DNA of 34,005 bases from Neophaeotheca triangularis (GCA_054600435.1 BAAIJX010000067.1:62001-96005), one strand, 5' to 3'; counted from the first letter of the stretch, positions 689 through 34,005 are shown. Notes: generated from the sequence alone by a model not told the origin. Numbers and translations: made by a program.

Positions 689-880
689 ACCGACGCCTCT
701 CTCACGCCAAATTCGGAAAAGGCATAGCCAACACCGAAACCAGACCATTCACCCACTTCAACACCCCCTAAAAAGCAAGACCAAAACCGACCCTTCTCCC
801 ACGCCATACTTGGAATAAGCAGAACCAACACCCAAACCAGACCATCCATCCACTTCAACACATCCTAGAAAGCAAGACCA
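689..880. repeat. Imperfect tandem duplication, two copies with a ~97-bp period
   Basis: 689-783 (accgacgcctctctcacgcc...cacttcaacaccccctaaaaagcaagacca) versus 786-880 (accgacccttctcccacgcc...cacttcaacacatcctagaaagcaagacca). Confidence 0.85.
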
Positions 881-1361: not shown

Positions 1362-1395
1362 CCTTCCTTCCTTCCTTCCTTCCTTCTTTCTTTCC
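1362..1395. repeat. (CCTT)n/(CTTT)n microsatellite
   Basis: ccttccttccttccttccttccttctttctttc read directly. Confidence 0.9.
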
Positions 1396-1763
1396 CGTAC
1401 CGTGGGCCAACTCAACCTAAGCACCTCGGGAGGTATGATGGGAGGAAACGACCCCTTTTTGGCGGAAATGGAACATCCATGTCTCTCCATCACAATTTAC
1501 CATTTGGGGAGGCGAGGGGAGAAAGGGTGTGTCAGGTTTCCGTTCGAGGCGGGTTACGCTTCTTTGCTGGACTTGTTTACTTGGTAGATGATACTTGTCA
1601 ACTTGTTAGCTTGATAGCTTGTCACTTGTTAGTTGGGCTTTTTTTCCCCCTATGCTTCTTTTTTGGTGTCCGAGATGAGTGAGAGTGTGAGCTCGAAGCT
1701 TGGAGGCTGGGACTGTAACCACCCGATGGTATAAGCGGGCGCGGTTGAGGGATATATTGCTGT

Positions 1764-1875
1764 GAGAAAGAAAGAGAGAGGGAGGGAGGCAGAGAGAGGG
1801 AGGCAGAGAGAGGGAGGCAGGGAGAGAGATGTGAGCGAGAGCAAAAGAAAAAGAGAGATGTGAGTGAGACTAAAA

Positions 1876-1906
<31 letters not shown>

Positions 1907-1916
1907 GGAAGAGAAA
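1764..1916. repeat. GA-rich polypurine low-complexity tract
   Basis: Degenerate (GA)n and gagagagggaggca repeats. Confidence 0.85.
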
Positions 1917-2261
1917 CATACAGAGCAGCTTGCACGTCAGCGTGCAAAAAACCCCCGAAAGACGAAAGAGGAAGGAAAATAAGACTCCATGCTGGATTGA
2001 AACCGCTTCATCATCAACAGCCCCTCCAGGTTTTTCGGAATTCTCTTAGTGTCAAGAGAGCTTGGGGAATAAACGGCAAAACGGCAAACGCCCAAAACAC
2101 CATCGCTATACCGTATCTTGACCCTGCCCCTTTCAAACCTAACAAGCCAACGCCACGCCTACCCGGAAACCGAACCCCTTTCATAACTCCAACCGTCAAG
2201 AGCCCGCCAACGCCGCGGAAACCAATACCTTACCTATCCGACCCTTCCGACCATATCTGAT

Positions 2262-6205: not shown

Positions 6206-7492
6206 ATGGCTACTGACGAGCAAGACGGAGCACCACTACTGCCCACGCCTTCGTTCAAACCCTTCAACCCTCCAACACAGCCAGACCAACATGAATCCGC
6301 CCCCTCTTCCCCAACCGCAACACCCGATGACACCATCTTCCCCTTCCCAACCTTTGCCACCTCCCGTCCAGACGCCCGCAAAACTCACTTCCCCCAATGT
6401 ATCGCCCATCGCGGCTACAAAGCCGCCTATCCAGAAAACACCATGAGTGCATTCCGCGGCGCCATGAAAATCGGTGCCCACGCCATCGAAACCGACCTAC
6501 ACATCACCAGCGACGACATCATCGTCATCTCCCACGACCCAACCCTCCAACGTTGCTACGGCCGCCCGGATAAAATACCCGACTCCACCTGGTCCTCCCT
6601 CTCCACCGCGAAAACTCTCCAGCCCCCCCACGACCCCCTTCCCCGCCTCACCGACCTCCTAACCCTCCTCTCATCCCCGGAAAACCACCACATCTGGCTC
6701 CTCCTCGACATCAAAATCTCCAACGACCCGGTCCGCATAATGTCCCTCCTCGCCAAAACATTCGCAACCCACCCTACCCCGTCCAACTCCCCTCCCTGGC
6801 CCTCCCGCATCCTCCTAGGCCTCTGGGCAGCCAAGTACCTCCCCCCAGCCCACTCCTACCTCCCAAATTACAGCGTCACGCACATAGGTTTCGCACTAAC
6901 CTACGCCGCACACTTCCTCGACCTCCCACACATAGCTTTCAACCTCTTCCTCCCCATGCTCATCGCCCCCGGTGGCACCAAATTCATCCGCGAAGCCCGA
7001 ACGCTCCACCACCGCCCCGTCTTAGCCTGGACGGTCAACGAAATCGACAAAATGTCCTGGTGTGTGCGGCATGGGATTGACGGGGTGGTGACGGATGAGC
7101 CGGAGGTATTTTTGGGACTTGTTCGGGGTTGGGAGGAGGCTGAGCGCCATGCTTCTTCCTCTTCTTCTTCTTCTTCTCGGAGTCTGGGTCACGGCTGGGC
7201 TGGCGGGCTTTTACCCATCGAGCCGAGGGGGTATTGGCGGTGTTTGAAAGTCTGGCTTTGGTTTCGAGTGCTGGGGTTTTGGAGTCTGCGGAATTTGAAA
7301 CCGGTTGCGAGTCGGGGTTTGGTTTTTGGGGGTGTGGAAGGGGAAGAGGGTGGGGCGGGAGGTCGAGGTGGGTTGGAGAGAAATAGTGGCTTTGGGCTTA
7401 AGAGTGTGGAGGGCATTAAAGGGGTCGATGGTGCGCTGGAGGGAGAGCTGGGGGGTGTTGGTGAGCGGGTTGAGGTAGAGGCTGCTACATGA
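6206..7492 (+). CDS. Glycerophosphodiester phosphodiesterase (GDPD) family protein, Pgc1-like phospholipase C
   Basis: PQCIAHRGYKAAYPENTMSAF, AIETDLHITSDDIIVISHD, LLLDIK, WTVN and GIDGVVTDEP motifs of the GDPD TIM barrel; hydrophobic C-terminal segment. Confidence 0.92.
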   Translation: MATDEQDGAPLLPTPSFKPFNPPTQPDQHESAPSSPTATPDDTIFPFPTFATSRPDARKTHFPQCIAHRGYKAAYPENTMSAFRGAMKIGAHAIETDLHITSDDIIVISHDPTLQRCYGRPDKIPDSTWSSLSTAKTLQPPHDPLPRLTDLLTLLSSPENHHIWLLLDIKISNDPVRIMSLLAKTFATHPTPSNSPPWPSRILLGLWAAKYLPPAHSYLPNYSVTHIGFALTYAAHFLDLPHIAFNLFLPMLIAPGGTKFIREARTLHHRPVLAWTVNEIDKMSWCVRHGIDGVVTDEPEVFLGLVRGWEEAERHASSSSSSSSRSLGHGWAGGLLPIEPRGYWRCLKVWLWFRVLGFWSLRNLKPVASRGLVFGGVEGEEGGAGGRGGLERNSGFGLKSVEGIKGVDGALEGELGGVGERVEVEAAT

Positions 7493-14633: not shown

Positions 14634-16754
14634 TCATTGGTAGGCTTGATTGTCAAGATCTCGAAACAGCGCATCCCAGTCCTGTACCTCCGTAGTCGTA
14701 CTTAAATCGAGGTAATCTTCAAAGAGATTCGGGTATTGTCCAGAAAACAGTCCGTCAGTGGCTGTCTCTCCGGCCGCATAAGCTTGATTGGTCAATGCTA
14801 TTCCTTCGGACGCATTCGTTGACGCCGCAGCACGGGACTGCTCAAACGACGTTTCCGATCCCTGGAGCTTGACCTTGTGCTTCTTTAGAACAATTGTCAG
14901 CGACTCCAAGTACATTCCAGCATGCAAGGAACCTTTCCCGGCCTCGACGAGCATCTCACAGGCCGAGTGGACCTCGGACTTCCGCTCCTCGTCGCCGTCT
15001 TTGTCTCCGTGAACGCACATATCTAGCACTAGCACGATGACAGCGCAAAAAAGATGGTGTAGAACGCACACAAGCTTGAGCGGATTGGAGCGTTGGGGTC
15101 CCAAGTCATTTGTTACTCTGGCCCTGAGGCTCAGGACCTTCCGTGCAGATTCCAAGCAGACAGTTCGTGAGAAGGCGAATCTAGGGTCTTGACTTGCGCG
15201 GATTAGAAAAGGAAGGTGAAGCCTGCAGCGCCTTGTGAGGATGGTAAGGTTTGTAAAATACCGCTGAGAGTCGATGATTTGGTCGCCGGTGACAAGCTGA
15301 GAGTCGGAGCAACTTCTATTCCCATTAAGCGTGAGAGAGCCAGGTAGAGTTTCCAAAAGCTGTGAGAACTTCCCGTCGAGCTCTGTTACGCGATCGTAAG
15401 GCATCTGGCTGATGTCGTCGCAGGCGAAGTAGTCCCATGTGGCGTCGGCAGCCTCGCGGCAGAGTTCTCCGAGCCGAACGCGGGAAAGATAGTAGGACAT
15501 TACGGTAGGCTCTGAGAGCGGACGGTCGAATTCTGCACCTCTCGTCATGAGGTCCTCGTCTGAAACGTTTCTCGGCATGTTGACTCGGATGTGGCGACGC
15601 TGCACGGAGTATGTACATTCCTGCGGGCCGGGGACAAGAGCCAAACTCCAATCCGTAGCTGCTAAATGCCACCAAACCCTCCTCTTCACCTCGGTCTCTA
15701 CCATCTGATCCCGTGTTTGTGGCTGAGAACAAGGCAGAGGTACAGAATCTGTTATGTGGAGGCCCATATGCCGCGCATTAGTGAGGGCTGTTGCGTGCAA
15801 GTAAAATGCCTTCGGAGAGAAGCCCTCTATGTGGAAAATCAGAAACATGACGATAATGGTCCCTTGTATTATCTCCAGAGAGGGTGAGGTCGTGCGCTGC
15901 GAATGCGTGTGGACATCGAGTGCACATCGAAGCCAATACATTCCAATGGCAGTTGCTTCGTCGGAAGAGCCTAAGATCGACGGTAATTCGTATGTGCTGA
16001 AACTTTTGTAGACAGCAGTGGTGGCAAGGATGCTGAAGAGAAGCATGAGCTGATTGACATTCGTAGGCTCATTGTTCCTTAGCCGCTCAAAAATATCGGC
16101 AATCTTAACATGGATGCTCGGTACATGCACAATGTGCTGCAGTGTGTCGACAGTCTCACTGTAGCTGGCAAAAAGATGCAGTGCTTCCGTCTCCGTAGGC
16201 AGGATGAGCTGCCCGTAAGACAAAGTGCCGCAGGCCACCATGGCGTGAAGATTGGCTAGATGTTCTGTGCCAACTCGAAGCCCATATGACATGTTGGGCA
16301 TCCGTGTATTCTCCCGAGTACCAACGCCTTCCAAGAATTGTAGATCGCCAGTGAAAGTCTTCACGACCTCTGATTCTGGAGCGGGAAGACGAGCGTTAGG
16401 TTTGCTGGTTGTGATTGGACCATTCAACTGCTCTGGAGAGTCGGTGAAGCTAGACTTGCCGCTGCGGTTGTTGTTGAATACTGCGTTCTCCAGCCGCCTT
16501 AGACGTGCACGGATGGCTGCGTTGTCCGCATCGAGATCGGATGATGGACCTTGCATCCGCGGTGTCGATCCATTATTCGTCGCAGGGTAAAGGGTCGATA
16601 CAGTATGGCCTCGATGTCCTTGAAAGAGACAAGATACACCACGGGACCTACAGTTAGAGCATGGCTCGGTTCGATCGCATTTCAACTTCTTCTTGCGGCA
16701 TGAATCGCAAGACACAGGCTCCTGACGTGGACGACTTGTTCTCTGCGGAGGCAT
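14634..16754 (-). CDS. Zn(II)2Cys6 transcription factor with fungal middle-homology domain
   Basis: CDSCRKKKLKCDRTEPCSNCRSRGVSC cluster; ARHMGLH...EVKRRVWWHLAATDW middle-homology motif; ATG at 16754. Confidence 0.95.
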   Translation of the reverse strand: MPPQRTSRPRQEPVSCDSCRKKKLKCDRTEPCSNCRSRGVSCLFQGHRGHTVSTLYPATNNGSTPRMQGPSSDLDADNAAIRARLRRLENAVFNNNRSGKSSFTDSPEQLNGPITTSKPNARLPAPESEVVKTFTGDLQFLEGVGTRENTRMPNMSYGLRVGTEHLANLHAMVACGTLSYGQLILPTETEALHLFASYSETVDTLQHIVHVPSIHVKIADIFERLRNNEPTNVNQLMLLFSILATTAVYKSFSTYELPSILGSSDEATAIGMYWLRCALDVHTHSQRTTSPSLEIIQGTIIVMFLIFHIEGFSPKAFYLHATALTNARHMGLHITDSVPLPCSQPQTRDQMVETEVKRRVWWHLAATDWSLALVPGPQECTYSVQRRHIRVNMPRNVSDEDLMTRGAEFDRPLSEPTVMSYYLSRVRLGELCREAADATWDYFACDDISQMPYDRVTELDGKFSQLLETLPGSLTLNGNRSCSDSQLVTGDQIIDSQRYFTNLTILTRRCRLHLPFLIRASQDPRFAFSRTVCLESARKVLSLRARVTNDLGPQRSNPLKLVCVLHHLFCAVIVLVLDMCVHGDKDGDEERKSEVHSACEMLVEAGKGSLHAGMYLESLTIVLKKHKVKLQGSETSFEQSRAAASTNASEGIALTNQAYAAGETATDGLFSGQYPNLFEDYLDLSTTTEVQDWDALFRDLDNQAYQ

Positions 16755-17760
16755 GGTGATCAACACCGTTCGCGGATTTGATGACCCCCACAGCGCTCCA
16801 TGTTGTGACTATCGGGCGAGCACAAGCAATTGGCGATGTGGGATAGGGGGTAGTGAGGTTCAGTCAGTAGAAGTTCGACGGGCCCAAGCTCTGGCCGCTA
16901 GGCTGCATTTGGTATATACACATACGGACACTGAGGTGCTTTCTCACTTCACAACCTCTTTCCTCAAAGCATCCTATCCCTTAGAAGAACCCGTAAACTC
17001 CACCTAAAGAACGGAGTAAAGGCTGCTCGAGACATGCTATCGTTACGATAGAAGAGCGGCGATGATCAAAGACTACGGCAAGGAGCTTTGCTCTGTCCCA
17101 GAACTTGCGAACACGGCGAACACGGCGTCTGCGGCGGGAATACCGGTATTTATATACGCTTCTCGGATCCACTGAAATTGAATAGAAGGCCTAGCAAATA
17201 GCTTAGGTCTAAAGGTATCATGGCGGCAACTCAACGTCGATGTTGCGTCTTCCAACGTCTTGGATTGAGGTTATGTATGAATCGCAGGACCTGCGATGCA
17301 CATATTACAGAGTGGGTGTCACTGCGCAAATCCTGAAAGGCGATAGAGTACTCTGCTTGTAACCGGGCTCGGTGCGGCGAGGTTGGCGGGCTGGAGAGAC
17401 CGTTATCGACAGTCTTTGTCTTTACCCCAAGCGATGCATCCAGACCTCCCGTCGTTCGTCGAGTATCAACATGGGCTGTGCAATTTGCGCACATGGGGTT
17501 AAAACCAGTGCTGCGTCCTCTAAAGCCCAGCGTTCGTGCCTTCCCTGGGACGCACAGCTCTCGGCCGAATGCATCGCGGTTTGCGTTCAAGTGAGCGACA
17601 TGCTTGTTGTGGCCCAGCAGACACGGGAAGCCGTCATTCCAATCTCGCTAGTCGCGAGCTGATCTGGGTGTCCATCTTGCAGACAAGGAGGAGTCATGTC
17701 CCCATGGCGTTATCGAGCCAATCTGTGTGCCGGGCTGCGGGCAAGTCTCCCTTCTGACCT

Positions 17761-18884
17761 TCAGTCATCTCCAACCTCGGCAACAGCAAAGTACCCCTTG
17801 TTTTCCACGACACCACGATTCTTCACAACAGCTGTGTACTTAACGACCCAAAGAGGTCTGACCTCGCCCTTCAAGCTCTCACCTTTCTGCGCGCGTTCAA
17901 GCCCTTTCCCACTCGCATCATCCAAATGCAGACTCTTCCTCTTCTCTCCAGTTTTGCTACCCTCGGCCAAGACACCCGCGCCACCAGGACCAAGCAGCTC
18001 CCTAACCGTCCCTCGCGGTAGAATGTTACTGCAGTCGTTATGCACCAATAGCTCAACGCCTTCCTTCTTCGCCAGCGCCATCAGAGGCCTGGGAACACTA
18101 CAGCAATCACGCAAGTTGATTTGATCGACACTCGGCCTAACGCGAACGCTTTCGACAAACTCCGCCAGCCTATCGTGACCAAACTCAGCCAAACCAAGTT
18201 TCTTGACCACGCCCTCGTCGTGCAAAGCCTCCAATGTCCGCCACGTCGCGAGCTGCGAGGCCAGCTCTTCCGGCTGCGCTTCTACGGGCCCACGGGTGCT
18301 GATCTTGTCCGGGCAGTCTTCCTCCTCGTCGAAGTAGATGCCGGGGAAGGAGACGATGAGTAAGTCGATGCTGGGCATGTGCAGCTCGCGAAGGACGAGG
18401 TCGACGGCCGAGCGGGTTTGCGCCGCGCGAGTTTCAATCGTTTCGTCGGAGGCCGCAGGGGAGGTGGATGGCAAGTAGAACAGTTTGAGCGTGATGTCGT
18501 ATTGTTCGCGCTCTTCTTGTAGGGCTGTGTTGCTAAAGTCCAAGGCAGGGATTTCGAGGGTGCTTTCTGCAGGGGGCGTGGTCGGTCTCGTCCAGGTGTT
18601 GTAAGGGAGTCTTGGGGTCTCGGATGGGGTTGAAGTTCCATTGCTGTTGTTGCCGCTGTTATTGTGGTTGTTTTCCTTCGCTTCGCGGTAGCCATTGGTC
18701 GGAGGGGGGGTGGAGTGCGACTCAAAGTTGTTGCGGAGGGACGAGATCAGCTCGGTGTTGGACTTGGATTTTGATGGGCGGTGAATGGAAGAGCCGCCGC
18801 CCATAATATTGCTGTGGCCATTGTTAGTTATGATCGGAGTGCGGTCTAGCTAGAGTCGTACGAAGTAGAGAGTACGAGCTTCAT
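17761..18884 (-). CDS. Glutamate-cysteine ligase (gamma-glutamylcysteine synthetase) regulatory/modifier subunit; exons 18884-18862, 18811-17761
   Basis: Spliced start MKLVLSTSNIMGGG; EEREQYDITLKLFYLP, IDLLIVSFPG, LGLAEF, PSVDQIN..DCCSVP, LLVHNDC, WVVKYTAVVKNRGVVENKGY match the aldo-keto-reductase-fold GCLM family. Confidence 0.9.
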
Positions 18885-22180: not shown

Positions 22181-23361
22181 ATGAAGGTAAGCTGCTGCCA
22201 GGAGATACCCTCTCTCTCTCCACCTGTCTTTCGCGCCATATACACGCATTGCGCGACGAGACAATGCCATGTCAGCCCATGCTAACAAACATGTAGTCGC
22301 TTAGCTTCCCCGTCCCAAGGCAGCCGCTTCCCAGGACAACCGAATCCATGTCCGACGTCCTCAACTTCACCACCCACGATACCCACTGCGTCGGCGCGCT
22401 AGACGTGTTCTCTACAAAGGCCACAAAGGCGGAGAAGAAGGATTATAAGAAGGTCAAGGCCGTGCTCGACAAGAACTACGAGGATCTCCGCCAGGCGCAG
22501 GTCTGCAAACTGGCGTGGATGAAGGCCAAGGGCGTGGAAATCACCGAGGAAGACAGTAGAGAGCCTGAGCAAAGCAGCGTTTTCGGCAATCTCCATACGG
22601 ACAGCAAGGCTCGTCGCACCTTCTACTTCGTTACTCAAGCGCTCAACCTGGTCCATCCAGAGTACGATATCACTCAAGCATTGCAGTTGAGCGACTTCAA
22701 GCGTGTCTCCCTCAACTATATCCAGAAGAAGATGACAGATCAGCTTGGGTATCTATATCCTAGGAAGCGCAATTTCAGCAGATCCGACCGTTTCCGCCCA
22801 ACCCAAGCCAACAAAGCAGGCAACATGCCACCTTGGGACAACAAGTGCTGGGCCGCCTTTCACAAAATCATGGAGCTCCGAGCGTGCAAGATCTACGAGT
22901 ACGCTCCAGAGGAAGACCCGTACGTCGGTGATGTTGGCAGCTCGACTTACGTCCACTTTGTCTTCTTCAACACCTTCCGCAAGCGTATTTCCGTCCTGCA
23001 CTGGCGCATTGTCAGCATCATGGCCACGTCTCCCGTTCGCCATGATTCTCCGCCTAAGCGCCGCAAAGTCAGCGACTCCTTCGACGTAGCTACTGGAGCC
23101 GCCAAACGCAAAGACTACTGGTTTAGCGACCAAGCACCATCCTATGCACGGGACGGCAGCATCACAGGCATGGCCGAGTACGACGACGACGAAGAAGACA
23201 TGGAGCCTGCCACCTACTCATCCACGGACGACGGCTTCTGGGCCCTGGAAGACGCCCGCAACCGTATAGCAAATGACGAGTGGTTTGACGAGGATGAAGA
23301 CGAGGACGACAGCCAGACGCTCGGTTACGTTCACGAGATGGCGGAAGAGGCGAACTTCTAG
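22181..23361 (+). CDS. MAF1: Maf1-like RNA polymerase III repressor (divergent); exons 22181-22186, 22297-23361
   Basis: ATGAAG|GTAAGC micro-exon spliced in frame; LNF..HCVGALDVFSTK...KKDYK, SVFG..SKARRTF...LN..HPEYD, IYEYAPEEDPY, FFN..RKR and an acidic tail match the Maf1 A/B/C boxes. Confidence 0.8.
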
Positions 23362-24390: not shown

Positions 24391-24817
24391 TGTTACGATC
24401 CTATAAGGTAGTCTTATAGGTTTAGAGCTTATAGTAGAAGAGAAGAGATATTAAGGAAGGCTAGTAAGGGTGTTTCCTTTATTATAAGGATTTTAAAGAT
24501 ATATAAAGTGTTACTATAGACCTTTTAGTAAGATTATAACATAAGTTAAACACAAATCTCTATCTTGGAAATATCGCTACCTAAATATAAGGAGATTTAT
24601 GTCTCTAATTATTATAATCTGTCGCTCTATAGTACTTAGTTAAAGGTAAGTACTAAGTAGAGGTAAGTACTACTCTATCGCTTAGTAGTACTTAGTTAAA
24701 GGTAAGTACTAAGTAGAGGTAAGTATATTATATAACCTAAATGTACTCTATCCTATAACTATAGGTTCTACTAAGCATTCCTTATTATATACTAGGTATA
24801 GCGTAATGTTCATAATA
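24391..24817 (-). repeat. 3' LTR of outer element (427 bp), followed by polypurine tract 24818-24829
   Basis: Begins TGTTACGATCC; ends CATAATA (RIP form of ..TAACA); next to ctatccccctcc (PPT on - strand). First ~210 bp are homologous to the inner LTRs. Confidence 0.88.
24630..24725. repeat. 40-bp perfect direct repeat (56-bp period) in outer U3
   Basis: tagtacttagttaaaggtaagtactaagtagaggtaagta at 24630-24669 and 24686-24725; each copy contains AGTACTTA-N8-TAAGTACT inverted arms. Confidence 0.9.
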
Positions 24818-24905
24818 CTATCCCCCTCCTAGTCTAGCTCGTCCTAAGCTTATTCTCTACTTATCTTTCGTTCTATAGTTAATAGTATCTTCCCTTATTA
24901 ACGCG

Positions 24906-25502
24906 ATACCTAAAACAAAGAAGTCTTCTACTACTCGTTGCTATAAGTTATTTAATTTCCTAGATTCATATAGAACGGTTCTTAACATAGTTCGAAAATG
25001 TATGTAATACTAGGAGGTAGGTCGTATATATAAGGTACACATTTAGTCTAGAAAGTGTACTACCTATATATAGCGAAACATTTCTTCTTATAATATAAGA
25101 GTAATAGAGAACGAGTTCGCTTACCTTTATCATAATCATAAGTGTCTTTATAAGGCGATAGAAGAGGCTTAGTATATATCTATTATTGCTTAGTAAAAGG
25201 TAGCTAAGGCTTAAGAGGAAGCGAATCGTTTACTATCTAAGGAAATATGTCTTTAGAAACAAATAGACCGTTTATAGGAGAAGGAGGGAGAGGCTATAGC
25301 TATTAAAGAGCATAACATCGAGCTCCTCGAGCTTAAAGAAGGTAGTAACGAGCTCTTTAATCCTGATTTTCCTCCTAATTAGCTAGGTCCTAATCTAGCT
25401 TTAAATCCTCTTACTTAGACTTCGATAGACAGCCTACCTAACGAGTTTTAGGACCTTAGTCTAATTCCTAGTGATATTACTATAGGATCCTCTAGTAGTT
25501 AA
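24906..25502 (+). pseudogene. RIP-inactivated antisense ORF of outer element: Zn2Cys6-like plus coiled-coil protein (199 codons)
   Basis: No frameshifts over 597 bp; start ATA (RIP form of ATG); stops are all TAA/TAG. C-M-*-Y-x6-Y-x8-C-x2-Y-x7-Y becomes C-x2-C-x6-C-x8-C-x2-C-x7-C if TAY is reverted to TGY. Confidence 0.75.
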
Positions 25503-26076
25503 GTAAGTTGTCCTTAGGTTCCTAGGTATTTTTACTTACTAGGTATCCTTTCTATTTCACGAGGTAGTTCTAACTATCTCTATCTAGAATCTTTTCGACC
25601 TTATACTTAGCTTCTTCCTCTAGTAGATTATAGTAGAAGGTATCTTAGATTAGTATTTTAGTATCTACTAGTTCGAGTAAGGATATATAGAAGACTAGGT
25701 AGACTCTAGTATCTTTTAGGAGTTAGAGGAGGTAGTTAACTTTTCCTCTTTATTCTTTAACTAGAAATGGTCCGACTTTAATATAGTCTAGTTTTCGCGT
25801 TTATCTCCTTATCTTTAGGTTTTTCGTAAGTAAGTACACCTTATCCCCCTTCTTAAGCTAAGGTACTATTTTAGAGTCCTTATGTCTCTATAACTTAAGT
25901 CGCTATTATAACTATGTAAGTTTGTCTTTCGCTTATTTATATACTTTCTATAGCTACGAAGATGTTTATAGGGCCTTTTCTATAAGTAGTCCTAGCTTTA
26001 GTTCTATAAACATATTTAGATCTTTTCTAAAGTTTATATAGAATAGAGTTATGCCTATCGTCTCTAAGGCATTATT

Positions 26077-26497
26077 TGTTGCGATCCTACAAGGTAGTCT
26101 CACGGGTTTAGAGCTCGTAGCGGAAGAGGAGAGATATCGAAGAAGGCTAGCAAGGGTGTTTCCTTTGTCGTAAGGGTTTTAAAGATACGTGAAGTGTCGC
26201 TATAGACCTTTCAGTAAGATTGTAATATAAGTTGAACACAAATCTCTACCTAGGAAATATCGCTAGCTATATACATAGGAGATTCGTGTTAGATCAGTTC
26301 TTGACTAATCCGTCGTGCTCAGGATCAGACTAATCCTAAGTGTCCTAGCTTAGACTTAGTCTGAGTCTAAGCGAGCATGCTTAGTTAAAGTCTAAGCGAA
26401 CGTCTTGGCTAGTTCTAAGATCACGTGTCCGGCAAGCCTTAGGGTTAGACCCTAGCTCCGACTAGGAATTCTAGCTCTGCTTAGCTTAGCCGTAACA
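26077..26497 (-). repeat. 3' LTR of inner element (421 bp); PPT at 26498-26510
   Basis: TGTTGCGATCC...CCGTAACA; adjacent ctatccccctttc reads GAAAGGGGGATAG on the - strand. Confidence 0.96.
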
Positions 26498-26581
26498 CTA
26501 TCCCCCTTTCAGCCTAGCTTCGTCCTCGAAGCCTAATAAAGTTCCGTTATTCCCTACATCGTTTTGTCATCAAGTTTCGCG

Positions 26582-27181
26582 ATGTCTTCTACCCTGTCCC
26601 GTAAACAACAACGTCTTAATCTCTCGGCCGAAATCGAGAAGTCTAGAACAACCAACATAGTACCCTGTTCAGCCTATCGATCTACGAGGAAATCGCCTTC
26701 GGCCGAACTAGTACGATGTATAATTAGTGCTCGATCTAGTCGGTGTTCGGAATGTATACGCAAAGGGTATACTAAGTGTGACGCAAAGCTTAGTCGTCCT
26801 AAGTGGGAAAAATGGAGAGATTCACGCAACAAACTGTAACGGCAGTTAGAGGAGTGTAAGGAGGAGGAGCTCGAGCTTTTACAAAAACTACACGAGCGTC
26901 GTTCGAAAAAGTTGCGGTTGCGGAAACAGCTTCGTTATGCTAAGGGTCGCACGGAAACCGCGGTGTCTAGAGAGTTAGAGGATTTAGAGCAAGTAGATCG
27001 GTTAGAGGAAGATCTCTTAGGTCCGGTTAACACTAGGGTTAAGGTTACGCAGCGTCTAGGCTTTGTTAGTATTCTAGAGATGTCGACGCAGGACTAGAGT
27101 GCTATCGACGGCTTAGATCTTCCTTCCGAGCTTTAGGATTTCGGTCCTAATGATATTGTTACAGGGCCTTCTAGTAGTTAA
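26582..27181 (+). pseudogene. Antisense ORF of inner element: Zn2Cys6-like plus coiled-coil protein (200 codons, 3 RIP-type internal stops)
   Basis: MSSTLSRKQQRLNL...PCSA(Y>C)RSTRKSPSAELVRCIISARSSRCSECIRKGYTKC...KL*RQLEECKEEELELLQKLHERRSKKLRLRKQLRYA... One frame joins ORF-track pieces 26564-26839 and 26912-27097. Confidence 0.8.
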
Positions 27182-30100
27182 GTAAGTTGTCCTTAGGTTC
27201 CTAAGTGTTTTCGCTTGCGTAGTAACCTTTCCATTTCACGAGGTAGTTCTAACCGTCCTTGTCTAGAATCTTTTCGACCTCGTACTCGGCTTCTTCCTCT
27301 AGTAGATCGTGGTAAAAGGTGTCTTAGATTAGTGTTTCGGGGTCTGCTAGTTCGAGCAAGGATATATAGAAGACTAGGTGGACTCTAGCGTCTCTTAGGA
27401 GTTAGAGGAGATAGTTGACTTTTCCTCTTTGTTCTTTAACTAGAAACGGTCCGACTTTGACATAGTCTAGTTTTCGTGTTCGTCTCCTTGTCTTCAGGTT
27501 TTTCGTAAGTAGGTACACCTTATCCCCCTTCTTAAGCTAAGGTGCCGTTTTGGAGTCCTTATATCTTTATAACTCGAGTCGCCGTTACGACTATATGATC
27601 TTGTCCTTCGCCTATTAGTGTGCTTCTTGCAGCTGCAAAGACGTCTATAGGGCTCTTTCTACGAGTGGTCCTGGCTTTAGTTCCATAAATGTATTTAGAT
27701 CCTTTCCGAAATTTGCATAGAATAGAGTTAAGCCTGTCGTTTCTAAGGCATTGTTATTAAGTGCGAGCTATGCTATAGGTAAGAGCGCTACCTAATTGTC
27801 CTAAGCGTAGTTGACGTAATGTCGCAAATACGTTTCGAGGGATTGGTTTGAGCGTTCTGTCTGTCTATCGGTTTCGGGGTGAAATGCCGTCGAGAGCTTG
27901 TGCTTCACTCCTATTGCTAATATTAAGGTTTTCTAGTAGTTAGATGTGAAGAGCTTGTCTCTATCCGTAATCAGAACCGTTAGAATGCCGTAGTATCGTA
28001 CTAATCTATCGAGAACAAGGTGTCCGAGTTCTTCTACAGTAATTGTCTTATTGTAGGGAACGAAATGTGAGTACTTCGTGAGTCTGTCGACTATGACTAG
28101 GATCGAATCGTAGTCCTTGTTTGTCGATAGGTCTCTAGATCTCGGTAGCTTTACGATGAAATCCATTGTAACCTCGTTCCATAGTAGATCCGGTGGCTCC
28201 TAGAATTGTAGGTTCCTATATTTGGCGTGTCTCGAAGCTTTGTTTCGTTAGCAGCTCGTACATTTCTTAATGTACTCTAAGACCTTCTGTCTCATTCCGG
28301 GGAACACGAAGTTACGTCTAATGTATTCTACTGTTCTAGCGATTCCTAGATGTCCGTTAGTAGGTCTATCGTGGTAGTCCTAGATGTACTAGCGTTCCCT
28401 TTCGTTTAGAACCCTAAACTTCCTATGTTCGACAGGGAATTCCTCGGTGTCATCCCTAAGTACTCGCAGTACTAAGTTAAATTCCTAGGGGTTAGCGCTT
28501 AGGCTTCCGTCCTTATTAACCTTTAGTATGCGGTGTTGCTATAGAAGGTGTCCTTCTATGTAGTCGCTTCTTCTGCTTAGCGCGTCGGCGCGCCCATTGT
28601 CTTTTCCGGGAGTATAGACTATGTCGAACTTATATTGTCCGAGTAGCTCTAACTATCTACATTGTCGGCGTGACAATTCCTTGGTTGTTGTAAAGTATTG
28701 CAGGTTCTTGTGATCCGAGTAAATAGTTAGTCCGGTTGCTCCTTTACAGTACACTCTCTAGTATCGCAATGCTATAACGATTGCGAGCAGTTCTTTGTCG
28801 TAGATCTCGTAGTTCTATTCCGCTAGTAACATCTTCCTTAAGAAGTAAGCGATAGGGTGTCGTTTGCTTTCAACCTCCTACGTAAGGCAAGCTCCTATTG
28901 CTCTGTCGGAGGCATCGGTTTCGATTTGAATTGGTTTCTTAGGGTCAAACATCCTTAGCGTAGGAGCAGTCGTGCATAACTCCTTAAGCTTATCGAAGGA
29001 TTATTGTTGAATCTTTCCCTATACGAATAGTATGTCCTTTTTCGTAAGGTTAGTTAGAGGCGTAGCGAGCCTTAAGTAATCCTTTACGAATTTCCGATTG
29101 TAGTTAGCTAATCCGAGGAATGCTTGGATGTCCTTAACTGACTTGGGTATTAGCTATTCCTCGATCGATTAAGTTTTCTTCGGGTCTATTCGGATCCCGG
29201 TAGTGCTAATCACAAAACCTAGAAAGTCGACTTCCTTCTTGTAGAACTCGCATTTCTCTAGTACTGTTCTAAAGTCTACTTTGTCGAGTCGTTCGAATAC
29301 TGCGTGTACGTCCTTAGTATGTTATTCTCGTGATCCTTTCGTGAAGACTAATATGTCGTCGATGTAAGCGATAACAGTAATGTCGAGTAGGTCTCGTAGG
29401 ATGTCGTTAACGAGTTGTTAACAGGTTGCTAGGGCGTTCGTAAGTCCTATAGGCATAACCTAAAATTCGTAAAGTCCGTAGCGCGTTCGAAAAGCTGTTT
29501 TCCACTCTTCCCCCCTTGCCATTCTAACTAAATAGAATGTATCTCGGAGATCGATCTTGGTGAACTAGTGTGAACCGGTGAGTCGATCTCTCATCTCGTC
29601 GATATTAGGCAGTGGATAACGGTTTTTAGTGGTGATCGCATTGAGTCGTCTGAAATCGATAACTATTCGTAGTTTTCCTCCTTTCTTAGGAACGAAAAAC
29701 GGTGGTGAAGCGGCTAATGAAGTAGAGGGTCGAATCTATCCTTTCTTCATTTTTTCATCTAGCTATCGTCGTTGCTCTTCGAGCTCTTTTTCGGATAGCG
29801 CGTAAAGTGGCCCCCATGGTATCTTCGTACCGGGCTGAATGTCGATTCGGTAGTCCTATAGTTAATGTCTAGGTAGAGCGGCTACTCCTTCCTCTTCCTA
29901 GAAAAGGCGCTTCCATTTTCTAAATTCTCTAGGGATATCTAAAGGTGCGTGACTTCCTTCCTCAACTCTTACTTATTAGTCCGTTTAGGCTAGTTCGGTA
30001 CCTATAGAGTCCGATCTAATTCGTATTAGTATCGTGGTCGATTAGCGATACGTTTCGTTGATCTGCCTTCTCTTATCTGCCGTCGATCGCTGCCGGCGCG

Positions 30101-30548
30101 TAGGGTAGGTTGTAGTAACGTAACTACACCTGTCGAATGTAAGTACTCGTTTTCTCTAATCCACTATAGGATTGTGTCGTTCTAACTAAGGAGTGCCTAG
30201 AACGACGTCATGTCTAGCCATAGGCATAACGTCTAGGACAATTCGCTCGTGATGCTTTTAGAAGACAAGTGGTAGCGGTACTGTTTCGCTATCCACGTCG
30301 GGTAGTAATAAGCCGTCCACGGCTATTAGTTCGTACCCGCTATCTGTTTTCTTCTAGGTAGCTAGCCTATGCTAACGTACGAAAGTTTCCGAGATAAAGT
30401 TTCCGCTAGCTCCGGAATCTATTATAGCGAGGGTTTCGTATCCGTCGACAGTACATGTTGTTCGGAAGACCGTTCCTAATACTATTTCGTGTTAAGCATT
30501 TGTATTGTTTAGTTCCTAACGCTCGCTCTTAGCGACAGGTCCTATTCG
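27102..30548 (-). pseudogene. pol: pol: protease, reverse transcriptase, RNase H, integrase, chromodomain (RIP stops, frame intact; true 3' end uncertain)
   Basis: LAIIDSGASGNFIS (~30415), AYIDDIL (~29360), IETDASD (~28915), MDFIVKLP..DSILVIVDRLTKY (28166 downward), GPFLV (~27445), EYEVEKILD...YLVKWKGY..SENT*EP (~27290-27195). Confidence 0.95.
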
Positions 30549-32761
30549 TTTTTTAAGAAGTAGGTAGATGAATCCGCTGTTTCGAGAGAGACTTCCTAGT
30601 AAAGGGGTCCGTCCCGAGGTCTAATCGTGACTTTTCCTTGGATTGCGTGTGCGGTGATAGGTCCTCGTGTAGTTGCTTTAACATGTCCGAGGATCATCTT
30701 TCGGTCGACTAGTAGTAAGAACTTATCGCGCGGTACTATGGTCTATTGGTCCAAGGAATCCTGTGCTTGCTTCTTCATTTCTTATAGCGTGATTTCTTCT
30801 TCTCTCTATTGCTCCTAGATAAGCTAGAATTCTCTATAACGATTCTTGACTGTTTTGACTCGTTGTCTTATAGAATGTGGGATTCGTATCCCGTCTGGCG
30901 TAATGTAGCCGTTTTCTCCGTGAAAAGTACTTCCTATTAGTGGCCTGTCCTAGACAAAGGTGGTAGCGTCATACTCGACGGCGACCTTTCGGTAGTCCTA
31001 GAACATTGCTCGTAATCGTATAAGTATGGCTTCGAATTAGTTAGGTTCTAAGCGTCGTTTGCCTTAGATTATTAGGAACACTTCTTCGTACGATCGTGCA
31101 ATGTAAATGACCATTTTCTTGATCGGGTTTGGTCCGTGCACAATGAACTCTACTACGTCGTTGTCGTCTAGTTCATCATCGTCGGTGTAGTCGCATTCGG
31201 AGTCGTCTTCGGAATCCGTCACTGTCGTATCCTCTTGCAATTCTGGAATTTCTAGAGGCATCGATAGCCTTAAAGGGCTAATCTCCGGCGTTAGTACGAT
31301 CGCAGTGAGTTCCGGTGTCTAAGATATTTCTTCGTTGTCTGAGTCGGGTGTTAGGGGTGCTATTATCGGTGATAGTGCTTAGTTTTCTTGCAGTTTGTCG
31401 TCCTCCTATGCAAATAGAGGTAGGGACCTTCCTCGGGCTACGTTGCCGTCGTCCCTTGACTGCTGTAGTGGTTAGCGTCTTAACATCATGTTGAGTTCCT
31501 TCTAAGGCTTACGTAGTTGCTTAGATTCTTCGTCTGCTATAGCCTTAATCCTGTCGTTTAGATCTACTATCTAATCGGCTACTTAGATCATAAGGTTAAA
31601 GTGCTCTTTAGTCTACTCCTTATAGCTCACCAAGTCATCGTGAAACTCCCTAAGCTTCTAGTATTGCTCGATTAGCGCGTCCGTTCCGGACTTCGGGGTA
31701 ACTCGTTCGATAACGTTCACTTCCTTCCGAGGTCTAATAGGTATTCCGTTAGTCACTAGTCCCTAACTTTTGTGCACCAAACAGTAATCCCTCTTGTAAA
31801 ACCTCTAGTGAAGTTCGTCGTGTTCCGGTTCTTCGTAGGTTCCGGTGATGTCGTAAGCTCCGCGGCTCTTATCGGTAGGAGAGTCGTTATCCTATCGGGT
31901 CAAAATCGCATTAACCTCCTAGCGTGGGCGCATCTGTTTCCCACGGCAGTCTCGTGCATAGTGCCCTATCTTGTAGCAGTTATAGCATTCCGGTCCGTTC
32001 CGTTTCTTGCCTAGGGCGTTCTGTTTGCCCCGTCCTCTATCCCTACCCTTCCTAGGACGCTGTTACGTAGAGTCGAGTTCTATCGCATCAGGATCGCGAC
32101 GTTGCTAACCGACAGGCCGGCTGCCGGTAGCATAGCTAGTTCGTCCGCGATACTGTCTAGTGTGGCGTTTTTCCATAAACCGTTCGTAGAGAGCGTCATC
32201 AACCTCGATCGCCGATTTAATCATACCGGGGAGAGTTAACTGATCGCCTCCGTAGCGTATGAGTTCGTCCTTCACGTTGTCCTTAAGTCCTCGGTAGTAC
32301 ATGGTTATAAGAGCGTTGTCGTCCTAGTCGGTCTTGGCTAAGTGCTCCTAAAACTTAGCAGTGTACTAAGAGGCAGACGTTTTCTACGTAAGGTGCTGAA
32401 TCATTCGGATAGCAACTTGTCGATCGTTGCTCAATCTATAGACGTTACGGATGACCTTAACAAAAGACTTCTAGTTCGAGAATAGTCCTTTAGGGTCGAT
32501 TCGTTCTATAAGGAAATCCGTAAGCTTTAGGCGGATCTAGTGTTAAGCTTCTCTACGAAGGAAAGAAGCAGTAGTAAGAGGTTGCTTCTACTCACTAACG
32601 CTTTCTATAAGGAAGAACATCATCATCTGGTTAACCTAGTCGTCTAGCTTGTTACGTTCGCCATAGAAGTAGTCCGGTTTGGCAACCTTGCTAGTGACCA
32701 TGGTTAATACTCCTCGTTAAGTGCTAGCGACGCTTGCGTCTCGGTTATCGGATGGGGACAT
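30542..32761 (-). pseudogene. gag: gag (740 codons including stop), with CCHC zinc knuckle and long C-terminal extension
   Basis: ATG at 32761; KVAKPDYFYGERNKL, MYYRGLKDNVKDEL, CYNCYKIGHYARDC (~31945-31990); ends ..KNE* in the same frame. Confidence 0.9.
30548..30554 (-). other. Putative -1 ribosomal frameshift heptamer A AAA AAC at the gag/pol junction
   Basis: - strand TTA AAA AAC GAA TAG ends gag; the -1 frame runs into the protease motif. Confidence 0.75.
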
Positions 32762-32801
32762 ACTTACCTATTAATCTCTCTTTCCTAGAGGGTGTTCAAA
32801 G

Positions 32802-33222
32802 TGTTGCGATCCTACAAGGTAGTCTTACGGGTTTAGAGCTCGTAGCGGAAGAGGAGAGATATCGAAGAAGGCTAGCAAGGGTGTTTCCTTTATCGTAAGG
32901 GTTTTAAAGATACGTGAAGTGTCGCTGTAGACCTTTTAGTAAGATTGTAACATGAGTTGAACACAAATCTCTACCTAGGAAATATCGCTAGCTATATACA
33001 TAGGAGATTCGTGTTAGATCAGTTCTTGACTAATCCGTCGTGCTTAGGATTAGACTAATCCTAAGTGTCCTAGCTTAGACTCAGTCTGAGTCTAAGCGAG
33101 CATGCTTAGTTGAAGTCTAAGCGAACGTCTTAGCTAGTTCTGAGATCACGTGTCCGGCAAGCCTTAGGGTTAGACCCTGGCTCCGACTAGGAATTCCAGC
33201 TCTGCTTAGCTTAGCCGTAACA
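32802..33222 (-). repeat. 5' LTR of inner element (421 bp)
   Basis: Colinear with 26077-26497; by manual comparison 14 differences, all CpA>TpA or TpG>TpA. Confidence 0.96.
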
Positions 33223-33882
33223 TTATTATTAAGTACGAGCTATACTATAGGTAAGAGCGCTACCTAATTGTCCTAAGTATAGTTAACATAATGTCGCAAA
33301 TATGTTTTAAGGGATTAGTTTAAGTGTTCTATCTATTTATCGGTTTTAGGGTAAAATGCTATTAAAAGTTTGTGTTTCACTTCTATAGCTAATATTAAGG
33401 TCTTCTAGTAGTTAGATGTAAAGAGCTTGTCTCTATCTATAATTAGAACTATTAGAATACTATAGTATCGTACTAATCTGTCGAGAACAAGGTATCTAAG
33501 TTCTTCTATAGTGATCGTCTCGTTATAGGGAATAAAATGTGAATACTTCGTGAGTCTATTAACTATAACTAGAATTAAGATATAGTCCTTATTTGTCGAT
33601 AGGTCTTTAGATCTTAGTAGCTTAACGATAAAATCTATTATGACTTCGTTCTATAGTAGATCTAGTAGCTCCTAGAATTATAGGTTTCTATATTTAGTAT
33701 GTCTTAAAGCTTTATTCTATTAGTAGCTCATATATCTCTTAATGTATTCTAAGACCTTCTATCTTATTCTAGGGAACATAAAATTATGTCTAATGTGTTC
33801 TACTATTCTAGCGATTCCTAGATGTCTATTAGTAGGTCTATCGTAGTAGTCCTAGATGTACTAGTGTTCCTTCTTGTTTAGA

Positions 33883-34005
33883 GGGTAGGGTTAGGGTTAG
33901 GGTTAGGGTTAGGGTTAGGGTTAGGGTTAGGGTTAGGGTTAGGGTTAGGGTTAGGGTTAGGGTTAGGGTTAGGGTTAGGGTTAGGGTTAGGGTTAGGGTT
34001 AGGGT
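33883..34005 (+). repeat. Telomere (TTAGGG)n, chromosome end
   Basis: GGG-TAGGG followed by 19 perfect TTAGGG units to the end of the window, G-rich strand pointing outward. Confidence 0.98.

Follow-up and report, generated by a model that had tools for sequence, protein, structure and literature searches.

A 3′ module of upstream U3 and antisense gene, probably exchanged between chromovirus lineages, in nested elements of Neophaeotheca triangularis

Two inactive copies of a single Ty3/gypsy chromovirus family, one nested in the other, adjoin a telomere of Neophaeotheca triangularis (GCA_054600435.1 BAAIJX010000067.1:62001-96005; the whole analyzed stretch of 34,005 nucleotides is called the window), and they raise the question of how elements with a common pol and a common R-U5 come to carry a U3 and an antisense gene that differ so widely. 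The first-pass annotation had treated the gene and the U3 as one block, swapped or rapidly diversified as a unit.

Element B (26077–33222, minus strand) is nested within element A (24391–26076 plus 33228 to about 33880, minus strand), which it splits in the integrase region; the 5-bp TSD, TTATT, can be read from the sequence on the left (26072–26076) and on the right (33223–33227). The direct 421-bp LTRs of element B, of the form TG...CA, match at 407 of 421 positions, with 14 transitions and 0 transversions between the 5′ LTR (32802–33222, minus strand) and the 3′ LTR. The latter consists of a conserved part (26077–26289, minus strand; U5, R, and the core motif CTATATAC-N2-AGGAGATTCGT, also present in the six metagenomic loci, described below, that cover that part of the LTR: L001, L002, L003, L005, L006, and L007) and a B-type upstream U3 (26290–26497, minus strand). 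A polypurine tract (PPT) island (26490–26530, minus strand) abuts the 3′ LTR, and gag (31811–32725, minus strand) encodes a CCHC zinc knuckle (zf-CCHC, 22.4 bits), which completes a set of features typical of Metaviridae. Despite many RIP stops, pol (27102–30731, minus strand; protease, RT, RNase H, integrase, SH3, and chromodomain) gives the profile order RVP_2, RVT_1 (110.6 bits), RT_RNaseH, Integrase_H2C2, SH3_Tf2-1, and Chromo (35.9 bits), an order identical to that of the intact metagenomic locus L006; with this domain order and a C-terminal chromodomain, the elements are Ty3/gypsy chromoviruses (Metaviridae). The antisense ORF of element B (26582–27181, plus strand) has 199 codons plus a stop; three internal stops interrupt it (codons 86, 172, and 185), and its second cysteine position is occupied by Tyr. 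The first stop past the chromodomain lies at 27102–27104, so pol and the antisense ORF overlap convergently by 80 nt, and L006 has an identical overlap.

Element A repeats this arrangement. The conserved part of its 3′ LTR (24391–24602, minus strand), delimited by alignment to B, comprises U5, R, and the TATA-like core motif with about 25 bp upstream of it; there follow an A-type upstream U3 (24603–24820, minus strand) with a 56-bp tandem duplication, a PPT island (24813–24850, minus strand) that is kept in B and in the metagenomic loci, and an antisense ORF (24894–25502, plus strand) that is recognized by the family HMM and bears heavy RIP, with many stops and with Tyr at cysteine positions. 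The 3′ part of pol (25441–26076, minus strand; integrase C-terminus and chromodomain) is interrupted by element B, and the integrase region continues beyond it (33228–33880, minus strand) until it is truncated by the telomere repeats, (TTAGGG)n, that close the window (33885–34005, plus strand).

Both elements have been mutated and inactivated by RIP, as is evident from transition-type damage, dinucleotide bias, and skewed indices. In the backbone, A and B differ by 225 transitions vs. 13 transversions; mutated contexts are CpA (11/16), TpG (29/35), and CpG (44/70), and CpT (9/67), CpC (1/30), ApG (2/69), and GpG (3/34) are spared. The TA/AT index is 1.88 in A and 1.62 in B, compared with 0.71 in genes, and the (CA+TG)/(AC+GT) index is 0.25 in A and 0.58 in B, compared with 1.17 in genes. 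Damage is very heavy in element A, the GC content of which is 28–34%.

Alignment of A with B separates a backbone from a variable block. R-U5 with the core promoter (24391–24602 vs. 26077–26289) is identical in 178 of 213 columns (31 transitions, 3 transversions, 1 gap); pol is identical in 479 of 577 columns on one side of the insertion (25501–26076 vs. 27181–27756; 89 transitions, 7 transversions) and in 539 of 660 on the other (33228–33880 vs. 27762–28415; 105 transitions, 3 transversions). The total of 13 transversions in 1450 columns (0.9%, synonymous sites included) indicates a recent common backbone of A and B. The variable block, in contrast, contains 96 transversions and 280 gap columns. 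Its upstream U3 (24603–24812 vs. 26290–26489; 98/228 identical, 34 transversions, 46 gap columns) scores 38.0 against 31.5 ± 8.2 for 50 shuffles and is thus unalignable; leader and ORF (24851–25440 vs. 26531–27130; 62 transversions, 234 gap columns) score 114.5 against 64.5 ± 12.3 for shuffles, about 4 sd above, which amounts to weak residual similarity only. The PPT island between them (24813–24850 vs. 26490–26530) is identical in 29 of 43 columns, with 0 transversions.

The almost transition-only backbone confirms that integrase, chromodomain, and R-U5 are shared, and the upstream U3 and the antisense Cys-rich gene do make up the variable block, as the first-pass annotation had claimed. Its limits have to be redrawn at both ends. 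The stretch from the end of pol to the TATA-like box had been called unalignable apart from the PPT; this holds for the upstream U3, but leader and ORF are weakly alignable, and the conserved part of the LTR extends past the TATA motif by about 25 bp on its upstream side, which puts the LTR junction within U3 rather than at U3/R. Nor is the whole antisense ORF in the block, since its final ~27 codons, which overlap pol, are of the shared-backbone type. The two ORFs had also been taken as unrelated; both match one family HMM across almost all of its length (B, 166.4 bits; A, 53.6 bits at HMM positions 12–195, E 8.5e-18).

A real gene underlies the antisense ORF, and the fungal family to which it belongs is unannotated. 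Relatives of the B ORF number 144 cluster representatives at E ≤ 1e-3 (31 at E ≤ 1e-10) of similar length, and the names that they bear in protein and cluster databases are limited to “hypothetical”, “uncharacterized”, or none, with no precomputed Pfam domain. Word-indexed searches added little, with 10 and 15 proteins that were likewise hypothetical by name or unnamed. Family proteins are some 200 aa long and combine six Cys, spaced in a Zn2Cys6-like manner, with a long coiled coil and a tail that is acidic and contains Trp. Across the family alignments these Cys vary little or not at all, and the pattern occurs in 109 of 160 stored family proteins, most often with spacing 2-6-8-2-6 (44 proteins); the spacing of B, 2-13-8-2-7, occurs in 17. 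A metagenome scan with seven closer family sequences as query yielded seven short loci (those with L numbers here). Intact ORFs are found in L002, where the order is pol end, ORF, LTR, gag; in L003; and in L006, where the ORF converges on an intact pol. In intact metagenomic copies dN/dS is 0.06–0.10 (three pairs, 165–172 non-overlapping codons); the antisense ORF is under purifying selection. A scan of viral contigs returned 19 pattern matches, with no relative among them.

Canonical Zn(II)2Cys6 domains follow the spacing rule C-X2-C-X6-C-X5-12-C-X2-C-X6-8-C, and the family spacing agrees with it. Like Gal4-type Zn(II)2Cys6 factors (PF00172), family proteins have C-X2-C-X6-C-X8-C-X2-C-X6/7-C followed by a coiled coil; they differ in the Cys3-Cys4 spacer of 8 residues, in the first loop of 13 residues in the clade of B, in lacking the fungal_trans middle domain, and in being encoded by a retrotransposon. 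The gathering threshold of Pfam Zn_clus (PF00172) is not reached: the ORF proteins of the window give no match, and weak matches come from 6 of 21 family members (best E 0.012), under the curated cut-off; a canonical Zn_clus factor of the host, also encoded in the window, scores 36.4 bits. An hhalign comparison with a bona fide host Zn_clus N-terminus gives a probability of 68.7% across 15 columns. The label “Zn-cluster gene” in the first-pass annotation is apt for the cysteine spacing, but it overreaches the curated Pfam threshold.

The AlphaFold model of the protein (pLDDT 88.5) contains a helix, modeled with high confidence as a coiled coil, at residues 69–142; a model of the N-terminal part has pLDDT 74.9. 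Foldseek found nothing at E ≤ 0.001 with the full model, and with the N-terminal model 5 of 15 rows were HAP1 DNA-binding domains at 28–29% identity, non-significant (E 5–10). A VIA-wide search returned generic coiled coils only for the full model (Z ≤ 7.2) and nothing above Z 2 for the N-terminal model (one row, Z 2.0); a PDB sequence search with the family profile gave weak coiled-coil matches only (best E 0.018). One cluster of structural neighbors in the Atlas bears the name Zn(2)-C6 (TM 0.80 by query) and serves as a lead only. The antisense protein may be a small zinc-cluster dimer, nuclear and DNA-binding, that would regulate element transcription.

Although they belong to one family, the ORFs of A and B are deeply separated. 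In a tree of 98 rows, B falls inside the long-loop (X13) clade (15 rows, support 98) and A inside the short-loop (X6) clade (11 rows, support 99), the placement of A resting on RIP-distorted sequence that the tree flags for odd composition. The two ORFs are identical at 31 of 158 positions (20%), and each is 45–47% identical to a foreign protein (A to P0098, 70/157; B to P0004, 82/175). An AU test rejects A and B as sisters (delta lnL 79.6, p 0.00025), the grouping having been named after the tree was seen. The Cys2-Cys3 loop has 6 residues in A and 13 in B, an indel character and hence beyond what RIP can make. Past the conserved Trp, the ORF tail of B is common to A and resembles the clade of A; its scores (11.3 bits to its own clade, 5.1 bits to that of A) make it composite rather than clean, and any assignment of A or B as the recombinant would hang on this short tail.

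A second, independent mosaic with the A/B pattern is present in the metagenomic loci. Compared with L003, L005, and L007, L002 is 88–94% identical in R-U5 and 87–90% in pol, vs. 61–66% in U3 and 63–75% in the ORF. Synonymous divergence differs about 10-fold, with a dS of 2.2–2.9 in the ORF (L002-L003) vs. 0.24 in pol (L002-L005, 68 codons). These comparisons cover the two window copies and seven short metagenomic loci. Between the two origins that the first-pass annotation left side by side, the swap is favored by ORFs in different strongly supported clades, a backbone with <1% transversions, and the recurrence of the pattern in a second lineage.

Sequencing-run contigs are mostly about 200 nt long across these repeats. 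Loose contig ends occur at 27168 (runs X1 and X2, 3 contigs each) and at 26290 (run X3, 3 contigs) and may represent more cassette variants or less mutated A-type copies; bins at 24846–25409, in the A-type ORF, have zero cover in runs X3 and X4.

We propose, with a probability of roughly 0.7, that a contiguous 3′ module was exchanged between element lineages by recombination, most simply by template switching, to give the A/B mosaic. Each copy, like many ascomycete chromoviruses, has its antisense gene between pol and the 3′ LTR, convergent with pol and overlapping its last ~80 nt. A and B share an almost identical backbone (gag-pol as far as comparable, core promoter, and R-U5), and their 3′ modules probably derive from two clades of the family that separated long ago. 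Such a module is made up of upstream U3, PPT flank, leader, and the antisense gene from codon 1 to codon ~171. In the simplest form of the recombination, reverse transcription would switch templates between co-packaged RNAs: once the first strand has been transferred in R, a single template would serve for both U3 and the 3′ internal region beside it, and the two would therefore travel together. One junction would lie at the conserved TATA-core motif in the LTR and the other at the pol stop, inside the antisense ORF, where homology resumes. A mosaic of identical appearance would also result from ectopic recombination at the DNA level or from gene conversion among genomic copies.

Selection might in addition have kept the module together as a co-adapted pair, a sequence-specific Zn2Cys6-like factor and its own array of U3 sites, forming a private autoregulatory circuit in each subfamily; we consider this possible but doubtful. 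With its six-Cys motif, coiled coil, and acidic tail, the protein is indeed laid out like a minimal Gal4-type factor, and the Zn(2)-C6 name of its Atlas neighbor points the same way. Short dyad repeats, which may be the targets of the protein, occur in every U3 type and differ between cassette types. The U3 of B contains a CACGTG box and the dyad CTTAGAC-TTA-GTCTGAG (26349–26365), and CTYAGAC-N3-GTCTGAG is present in both B LTRs (4 matches over both strands, 0.01 expected by chance). The U3 of A has the dyad TAGTACTTA-N8-TAAGTACTA twice, and CTCAGTC-N3-GACTGAG occurs in L001, L002 (twice), L003, and L006; a RIP-tolerant form of this last pattern has no match in the window, where B has a half-site that differs by one base. 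The junctions of both mosaics spare the U3-ORF pair, although the conserved PPT island between the two offers homology for a switch, and in one further copy (476 nt, from another sequencing run) a B-type U3 is still joined to a B-type ORF start. Against co-adaptation, U3 and ORF are contiguous (~130 bp apart) and would be copied from one template, and the contrasts available amount to only ~2–3 independent ones. The CTCAG(T/A)C dyad is common to cassettes with ORFs only ~43–55% identical and is thus not private at fine scale; palindromes come easily in AT-rich sequence made by RIP, and the two dyads of A are copies from a single tandem duplication. CGG triplets are typical of Zn2Cys6 sites, and the U3 dyads have none. 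Physical contiguity explains the co-variation by itself, so that co-inheritance is the null expectation and a matched transcription factor with its own binding sites is a plausible addition to it.

That the block diverged where it stands, under relaxed constraint, under selection for diversity, or by RIP, with pol and R-U5 conserved meanwhile, is strongly disfavored and has very little chance of being correct. Within LTR elements it is usually U3 and the accessory regions that evolve fastest, the Tnt1 U3 subfamilies being an example, and element A is very heavily RIP-mutated. However, RIP makes transitions only and no indels, which does not suit the transversions and gap columns of the block; the backbone is low in transversions even at synonymous sites, each ORF is more than twice as close to foreign proteins as to the other and sisterhood is rejected, and the metagenomic loci repeat the ~10-fold excess of ORF synonymous divergence over that of pol. 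Least probable of all is that the antisense frame is not a functional protein gene but a chance ORF, a captured host fragment, or antisense RNA only, for although both window copies are broken and the databases offer neither an informative name nor a Pfam domain, the many representatives of like length with six near-invariant Cys, the three intact ORFs, the low dN/dS, and the confident structure model all argue for a protein.

The family is widespread in fungi, and its antisense gene most likely passes from one element lineage to another along with the enhancer region of U3. Two consequences are practical: many fungal genomes and metagenomes contain ~200-aa “hypothetical proteins” that can be annotated as accessory genes of retrotransposons, and pol-based and LTR-based families of these elements will conflict in TE classification. 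The recurring junctions also offer a clean natural case of modular recombination. A broader and tentative proposal is that the antisense gene of ascomycete chromoviruses might provide each element with a sequence-specific transcription factor, in the form of a minimal coiled-coil dimer of Zn2Cys6-like type, that would act on the dyads of its own U3, with factor and array swapped as a plug-in module that would give co-resident subfamilies separate circuits. Transcriptional control of LTR retrotransposons is mostly ascribed to host factors on U3, and these elements would be a possible exception. If the protein acts on U3, the elements would carry a portable, self-contained regulatory circuit, and views of fungal TE bursts, of subfamily coexistence, and of TE-driven rewiring of nearby genes would change.

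The system was called undescribed in the first-pass annotation, which is an overstatement: an antisense gene between pol and the 3′ LTR, brtn of the Boty-like LTR retrotransposons of Botrytis cinerea, was published in 2011 (Zhao et al., 2011, Virology 417:248, as cited in PMC8365987, PMC4227169, PMC5987419, and PMC7264820). By its title and the citing passages, brtn resembles the present gene in being an extra antisense gene at the same position in a fungal chromodomain gypsy element. Additional ORFs besides brtn are covered by Fig. S1 of PMC8365987, and one BcGypsy1 subfamily consensus is missing the usual beginning of brtn and yet retains an ORF (Porquier et al.), which hints at variation similar to that of the A and B modules. 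The citing passages contain neither a zinc-cluster reading nor an exchange of U3 plus gene, the comparison being one of descriptions rather than sequences, and none of the family relatives found in databases carried the name BRTN. By title or abstract, no paper was found on a Zn2Cys6-like antisense gene in LTR retrotransposons or, citations of brtn apart, on antisense ORFs in fungal LTR retrotransposons as such. Plant Ty3/gypsy elements (Grande gene23, RIRE2, and Retand) have additional ORFs in antisense orientation that lie between pol and the 3′ LTR; as described in the relevant passages of PMC7264820, these are conserved within families, some of their products are nuclear-localized, a regulatory role has been proposed, and the proteins have no clear database similarity. 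Position and orientation match those of the fungal gene; the plant elements belong to non-chromovirus lineages, and the fungal family is distinguished by the Zn2Cys6-like motif and by its overlap with the end of pol.

If the proposed action on U3 is real, these elements would parallel, among retrotransposons, the control of U3 by Tas in foamy virus or of the LTR by Tax/HBZ in HTLV. Both Tas of foamy virus and Tax of HTLV-1 act on U3, Tas by binding its own U3, and HTLV-1 HBZ is an antisense bZIP factor with a coiled-coil DNA-binding layout. The likeness lies in an accessory regulator encoded beside the 3′ LTR, antisense in the case of HBZ; the differences are that the viral proteins have no homology to the fungal family, and that the present elements live in a fungal host and lack an env gene. 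Modular recombination has familiar examples in Ty1/Ty2 hybrids and in the Tnt1 U3 subfamilies. Others are the recombinant centromeric retrotransposons of grasses (PMC4079200) and envelope recombination in ERVs (PMC10536682). Such cases resemble A and B in that 3′ or regulatory segments have been swapped on near-identical backbones, the explanation given being template switches between RNAs packaged together. In the fungal elements, unlike these, the unit that is swapped links the enhancer region of U3 with an antisense gene of regulatory type, and the junctions recur at the pol stop and at the core-promoter motif.

The window's final 10 kb are a chromosome end, which finishes in (TTAGGG)n telomere repeats (33885–34005) and is preceded by two nested minus-strand Ty3/gypsy chromovirus copies, A and B; GC is ~53% up to 24000 and 28–46% beyond. 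Element B (26077–33222) is an LTR retrotransposon whose two 421-bp LTRs (26077–26497 and 32802–33222) are identical at 407 of 421 positions and differ by 14 transitions and no transversions, and it is flanked by a 5-bp target-site duplication, TTATT (26072–26076 and 33223–33227). It has a gag with a CCHC knuckle and pol domains in chromovirus order (protease, RT, RNase H, integrase zinc-binding, SH3, and chromo). B is inserted in the integrase region of element A, which runs from its 3′ LTR (24391–24820) to 26076 and again from 33228 to ~33880, near where the telomere truncates it. Both elements are dead, with dozens of stops.

A and B carry the signature of RIP: the TA/AT index is 1.88 in A and 1.62 in B vs. 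0.71 in neighbouring genes, and mutated fractions are high for CpA (11/16), TpG (29/35), and CpG (44/70) and low for CpT (9/67), CpC (1/30), ApG (2/69), and GpG (3/34). The more heavily mutated copy is A; of the 89 and 105 sites that differ by a transition in the two pol segments, 74 and 93, respectively, are A/T in this copy. Between 23950 and 24390, starting ~400 bp ahead of A's LTR, GC drops to ~28%; this interval is spanned by one long contig at single-copy-like depth (sequencing run X1) and looks like unique flanking sequence into which RIP has leaked. The subtelomeric genes for a GDPD phosphodiesterase (6206–7492, plus), a 911-aa ankyrin-repeat protein (8454–11189, minus), an aldo/keto reductase (17761–18804, minus), and a Maf1 regulator (22348–23361, plus) are all GC-rich and without RIP effects.

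A transition-tolerant alignment of A with B separates a shared backbone from a variable block, as the first-pass annotation had claimed. The backbone comprises R-U5 plus the core promoter (213 columns: 178 identical, 31 transitions, 3 transversions, 1 gap column) and two segments of pol (577 columns: 479, 89, 7, and 2; 660 columns: 539, 105, 3, and 13, respectively); it totals 13 transversions in 1450 columns, and the two backbones would have been about 99% alike prior to RIP. The corresponding counts are 98, 50, 34, and 46 in 228 columns for the upstream U3, and 269, 147, 62, and 234 in 712 columns for the leader plus antisense ORF, with alignment scores of 38.0 (shuffled sequence, 31.5 ± 8.2) and 114.5 (64.5 ± 12.3); between them lies a PPT island of 43 columns (29 identical, 7 transitions, 0 transversions, 7 gap columns). 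Since RIP yields neither transversions nor indels, the block is truly different, beyond heavier mutation. Its limits differ somewhat from those first drawn: the LTR boundary had been set at a TATA-like box, but the conserved part takes in this motif and the adjoining ~25 bp upstream, and most of the antisense ORF is variable as proposed, but its last ~27 codons, which overlap pol, are common to A and B.

The antisense ORF of B (26582–27181, plus; 199 codons, three internal stops, Tyr at the second cysteine position) belongs to a family of which HMMER found 144 members at E ≤ 1e-3, 31 at E ≤ 1e-10, and 5 at E ≤ 1e-30 among 1.84 billion representatives. Most are ~190–205 aa; few carry names, and these are ascomycete entries called "uncharacterized" or "hypothetical" (Dissoconium aciculare, Pseudogymnoascus sp., Xanthoria steineri), all without a precomputed Pfam domain. 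Six cysteines are near-invariant in the alignment, and among 160 stored family proteins the six-Cys pattern occurs in 109, most commonly spaced C-X2-C-X6-C-X8-C-X2-C-X6-C (44 proteins); the B-type spacing (X13, X8, X7) occurs in 17. The AlphaFold model of an intact member (pLDDT 88.5; 118 aligned sequences) has a small N-terminal Cys domain, a single long helix (69–142), and short C-terminal helices. We call the protein Zn2Cys6-like, short of membership in Pfam Zn_clus, because resemblance to Zn_clus is weak: 6 of 21 members match (best E 0.012), hhalign against the window's host Zn_clus factor gives a probability of 68.7% over 15 columns, HAP1 DNA-binding domains make up 5 of 15 Foldseek rows for the N-terminal model (pLDDT 74.9) at E 5–10, and one structurally neighbouring Atlas cluster bears the automatic name Zn(2)-C6. 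That host factor, a canonical Zn2Cys6 transcription factor (14634–16766, minus; Zn_clus 36.4 bits, Fungal_trans 47.3 bits) ~8 kb from the elements, served as comparator for the Cys motif. The protein has a basic N-terminus, the six-Cys cluster, a coiled coil, and an acidic Trp-containing tail, the predicted layout of a small dimeric DNA-binding regulator; its putative function is most likely transcriptional control of its own element.

Relatives are encoded in seven metagenomic loci, which place the ORF within retrotransposons. In locus L006 an intact 200-aa ORF (350–952, plus) converges on an intact pol (873–3689, minus) with an overlap of 80 nt, the geometry seen in B, where the stop codon of the ORF runs to 27181 and pol meets its first stop past the chromodomain at 27102–27104; the order in L002 is pol end, ORF, LTR, gag-pol. 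The intact ORFs of L002, L003, and L006 give dN/dS of 0.06–0.10 (165–172 codons outside the pol overlap): the antisense ORF is a real retrotransposon gene under purifying selection. L001, L005, and L007 have stop codons where conserved Trp or Gln is expected and C-to-T or G-to-A differences from intact relatives, so other fungi, too, show RIP-like inactivation of this element group.

The ORFs of A and B, first described as unalignable, are indeed divergent but homologous at family level: the family HMM (108 sequences) scores 166.4 bits against B and 53.6 bits (E 8.5e-18, HMM positions 12–195) against the frame at 24894–25481 in A, which has Tyr at most cysteine positions. The first loop, between the second and third cysteines, has 6 residues in A and 13 in B. 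In a quick LG+G4 tree of 98 rows, in which A's composition is distorted, A falls within a short-loop clade of 11 rows (support 99) and B within one of 15 rows, 14 of them long-loop (support 98). Identity is 31/158 between A and B, 70/157 between A and family protein P0098, and 82/175 between B and P0004; an AU test rejects A and B as sisters, a group named after the tree was seen (delta lnL 79.6, p 0.00025). The split is thus deep, and older than the divergence of either ORF from relatives in other sources.

A second, independent mosaic is apparent among the loci, in which U3 plus ORF again behaves as one unit with the same two boundaries. L002 is 88–94% identical to L003, L005, and L007 in R-U5 and 87–90% in pol, vs. 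61–66% in U3 and 63–75% in the ORF; L003, L005, L006, and L007 are mutually 81–92% identical in U3 and 79–90% in the ORF. ORF dS is saturated between L002 and L003 (2.2–2.9), and pol gives a dS of 0.24 for L002 and L005 (68 codons). L006 differs from L002 and L005 in a chromodomain and pol-tail stretch (873–1080; dS 1.7–2.3 over the last 64–66 codons vs. 0.48–0.54 just upstream), which is a further recombination patch, adjoining the module yet separate. Recombination around the 3′ end is therefore frequent.

Both junctions can be located. On the pol side, A–B similarity resumes at ~27098–27130, at the pol stop and the ORF's conserved Trp codon; upstream of this Trp, B has the signature of its own clade (ILEM..D), and downstream it has xIDGL....W....SSS, common to A and typical of A's clade. 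Tail HMMs score B at 11.3 bits for its own clade and 5.1 for A's, and A at 26.1 for its own. Given these signatures and scores over ~27 residues, B's ORF is probably, if tentatively, chimeric, and the backbone is probably native to the A type. The LTR-side junction follows a core motif, CTATATAC-N2-AGGAGAYTCGT (plus strand; 26263–26289 in B and, with RIP changes, 24575–24602 in A), which marks that end of the variable block. It is kept in every locus that covers it (L001–L003, L005–L007; alignment columns ~190–215), including L001, which in R-U5 has an identity of only 52–60% to the others; since TATATA is symmetric, the motif could serve transcription both ways. Another copy, on a 476-nt public contig, has the core motif, B-type U3, PPT, and B-type ORF start together.

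Most likely, then, the upstream U3, PPT flank, leader, and most of the antisense gene form a contiguous module that has been exchanged between lineages. Exchange would most likely proceed through template switching while co-packaged RNAs are reverse transcribed: once minus-strand strong-stop DNA has been transferred in R, a single template would be copied through U3 and the neighbouring internal sequence on the 3′ side, and switching back to the other template would require homology, which is not met again before the end of pol; on the opposite side, homology would come from the conserved core motif, R, and U5. Gene conversion at the DNA level, from one genomic copy to another, would have an equal outcome. 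Co-variation of U3 and ORF is expected because both would be copied from one template, and template switching alone predicts it.

The first-pass annotation had explained this co-variation by a co-adapted circuit, each putative factor matching its own U3 array, which we consider doubtful. Short dyad repeats do differ between U3 types, in keeping with such matching: CTYAGAC-N3-GTCTGAG in both LTRs of B (chance expectation 0.01), CTCAGTC-N3-GACTGAG in L001, L002 (twice), L003, and L006, and TAGTACTTA-N8-TAAGTACTA twice in A, within a tandem duplication. However, the CTCAG(T/A)C dyad is common to cassettes whose proteins differ considerably, palindromes easily arise in AT-rich DNA made by RIP, and the independent contrasts number two or three. 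Separately, CACGTG boxes, possible candidate host bHLH-type sites common to cassettes of the long-loop clade, occur once in the B-type U3 (26427–26432) and twice, 12 bp apart, in that of L002 (3320–3337). Divergence of the block in place, without exchange, is very improbable, because backbones that are near-identical carry ORFs separated by a deep split, a pattern for which block exchange accounts and in-place divergence does not.

Modular recombination is well known in LTR elements and retroviruses. Ty1/Ty2 and Tnt1 are examples among LTR elements. The searchable literature yielded no report of U3 and a gene exchanged as a single module, no interpretation of an antisense gene in a fungal retrotransposon as Zn2Cys6-like, and no account of the breadth of this gene family. 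Comparable genes have been described in part: a review of plant elements treats ORFs that lie antisense between pol and the 3′ LTR as of unknown function (PMC7264820), a figure legend in a survey of fungal chromoviruses labels an "additional ORF with unknown function" (PMC2864245), and Boty-like chromodomain elements of Botrytis cinerea are reported to carry an antisense gene, brtn (2011).
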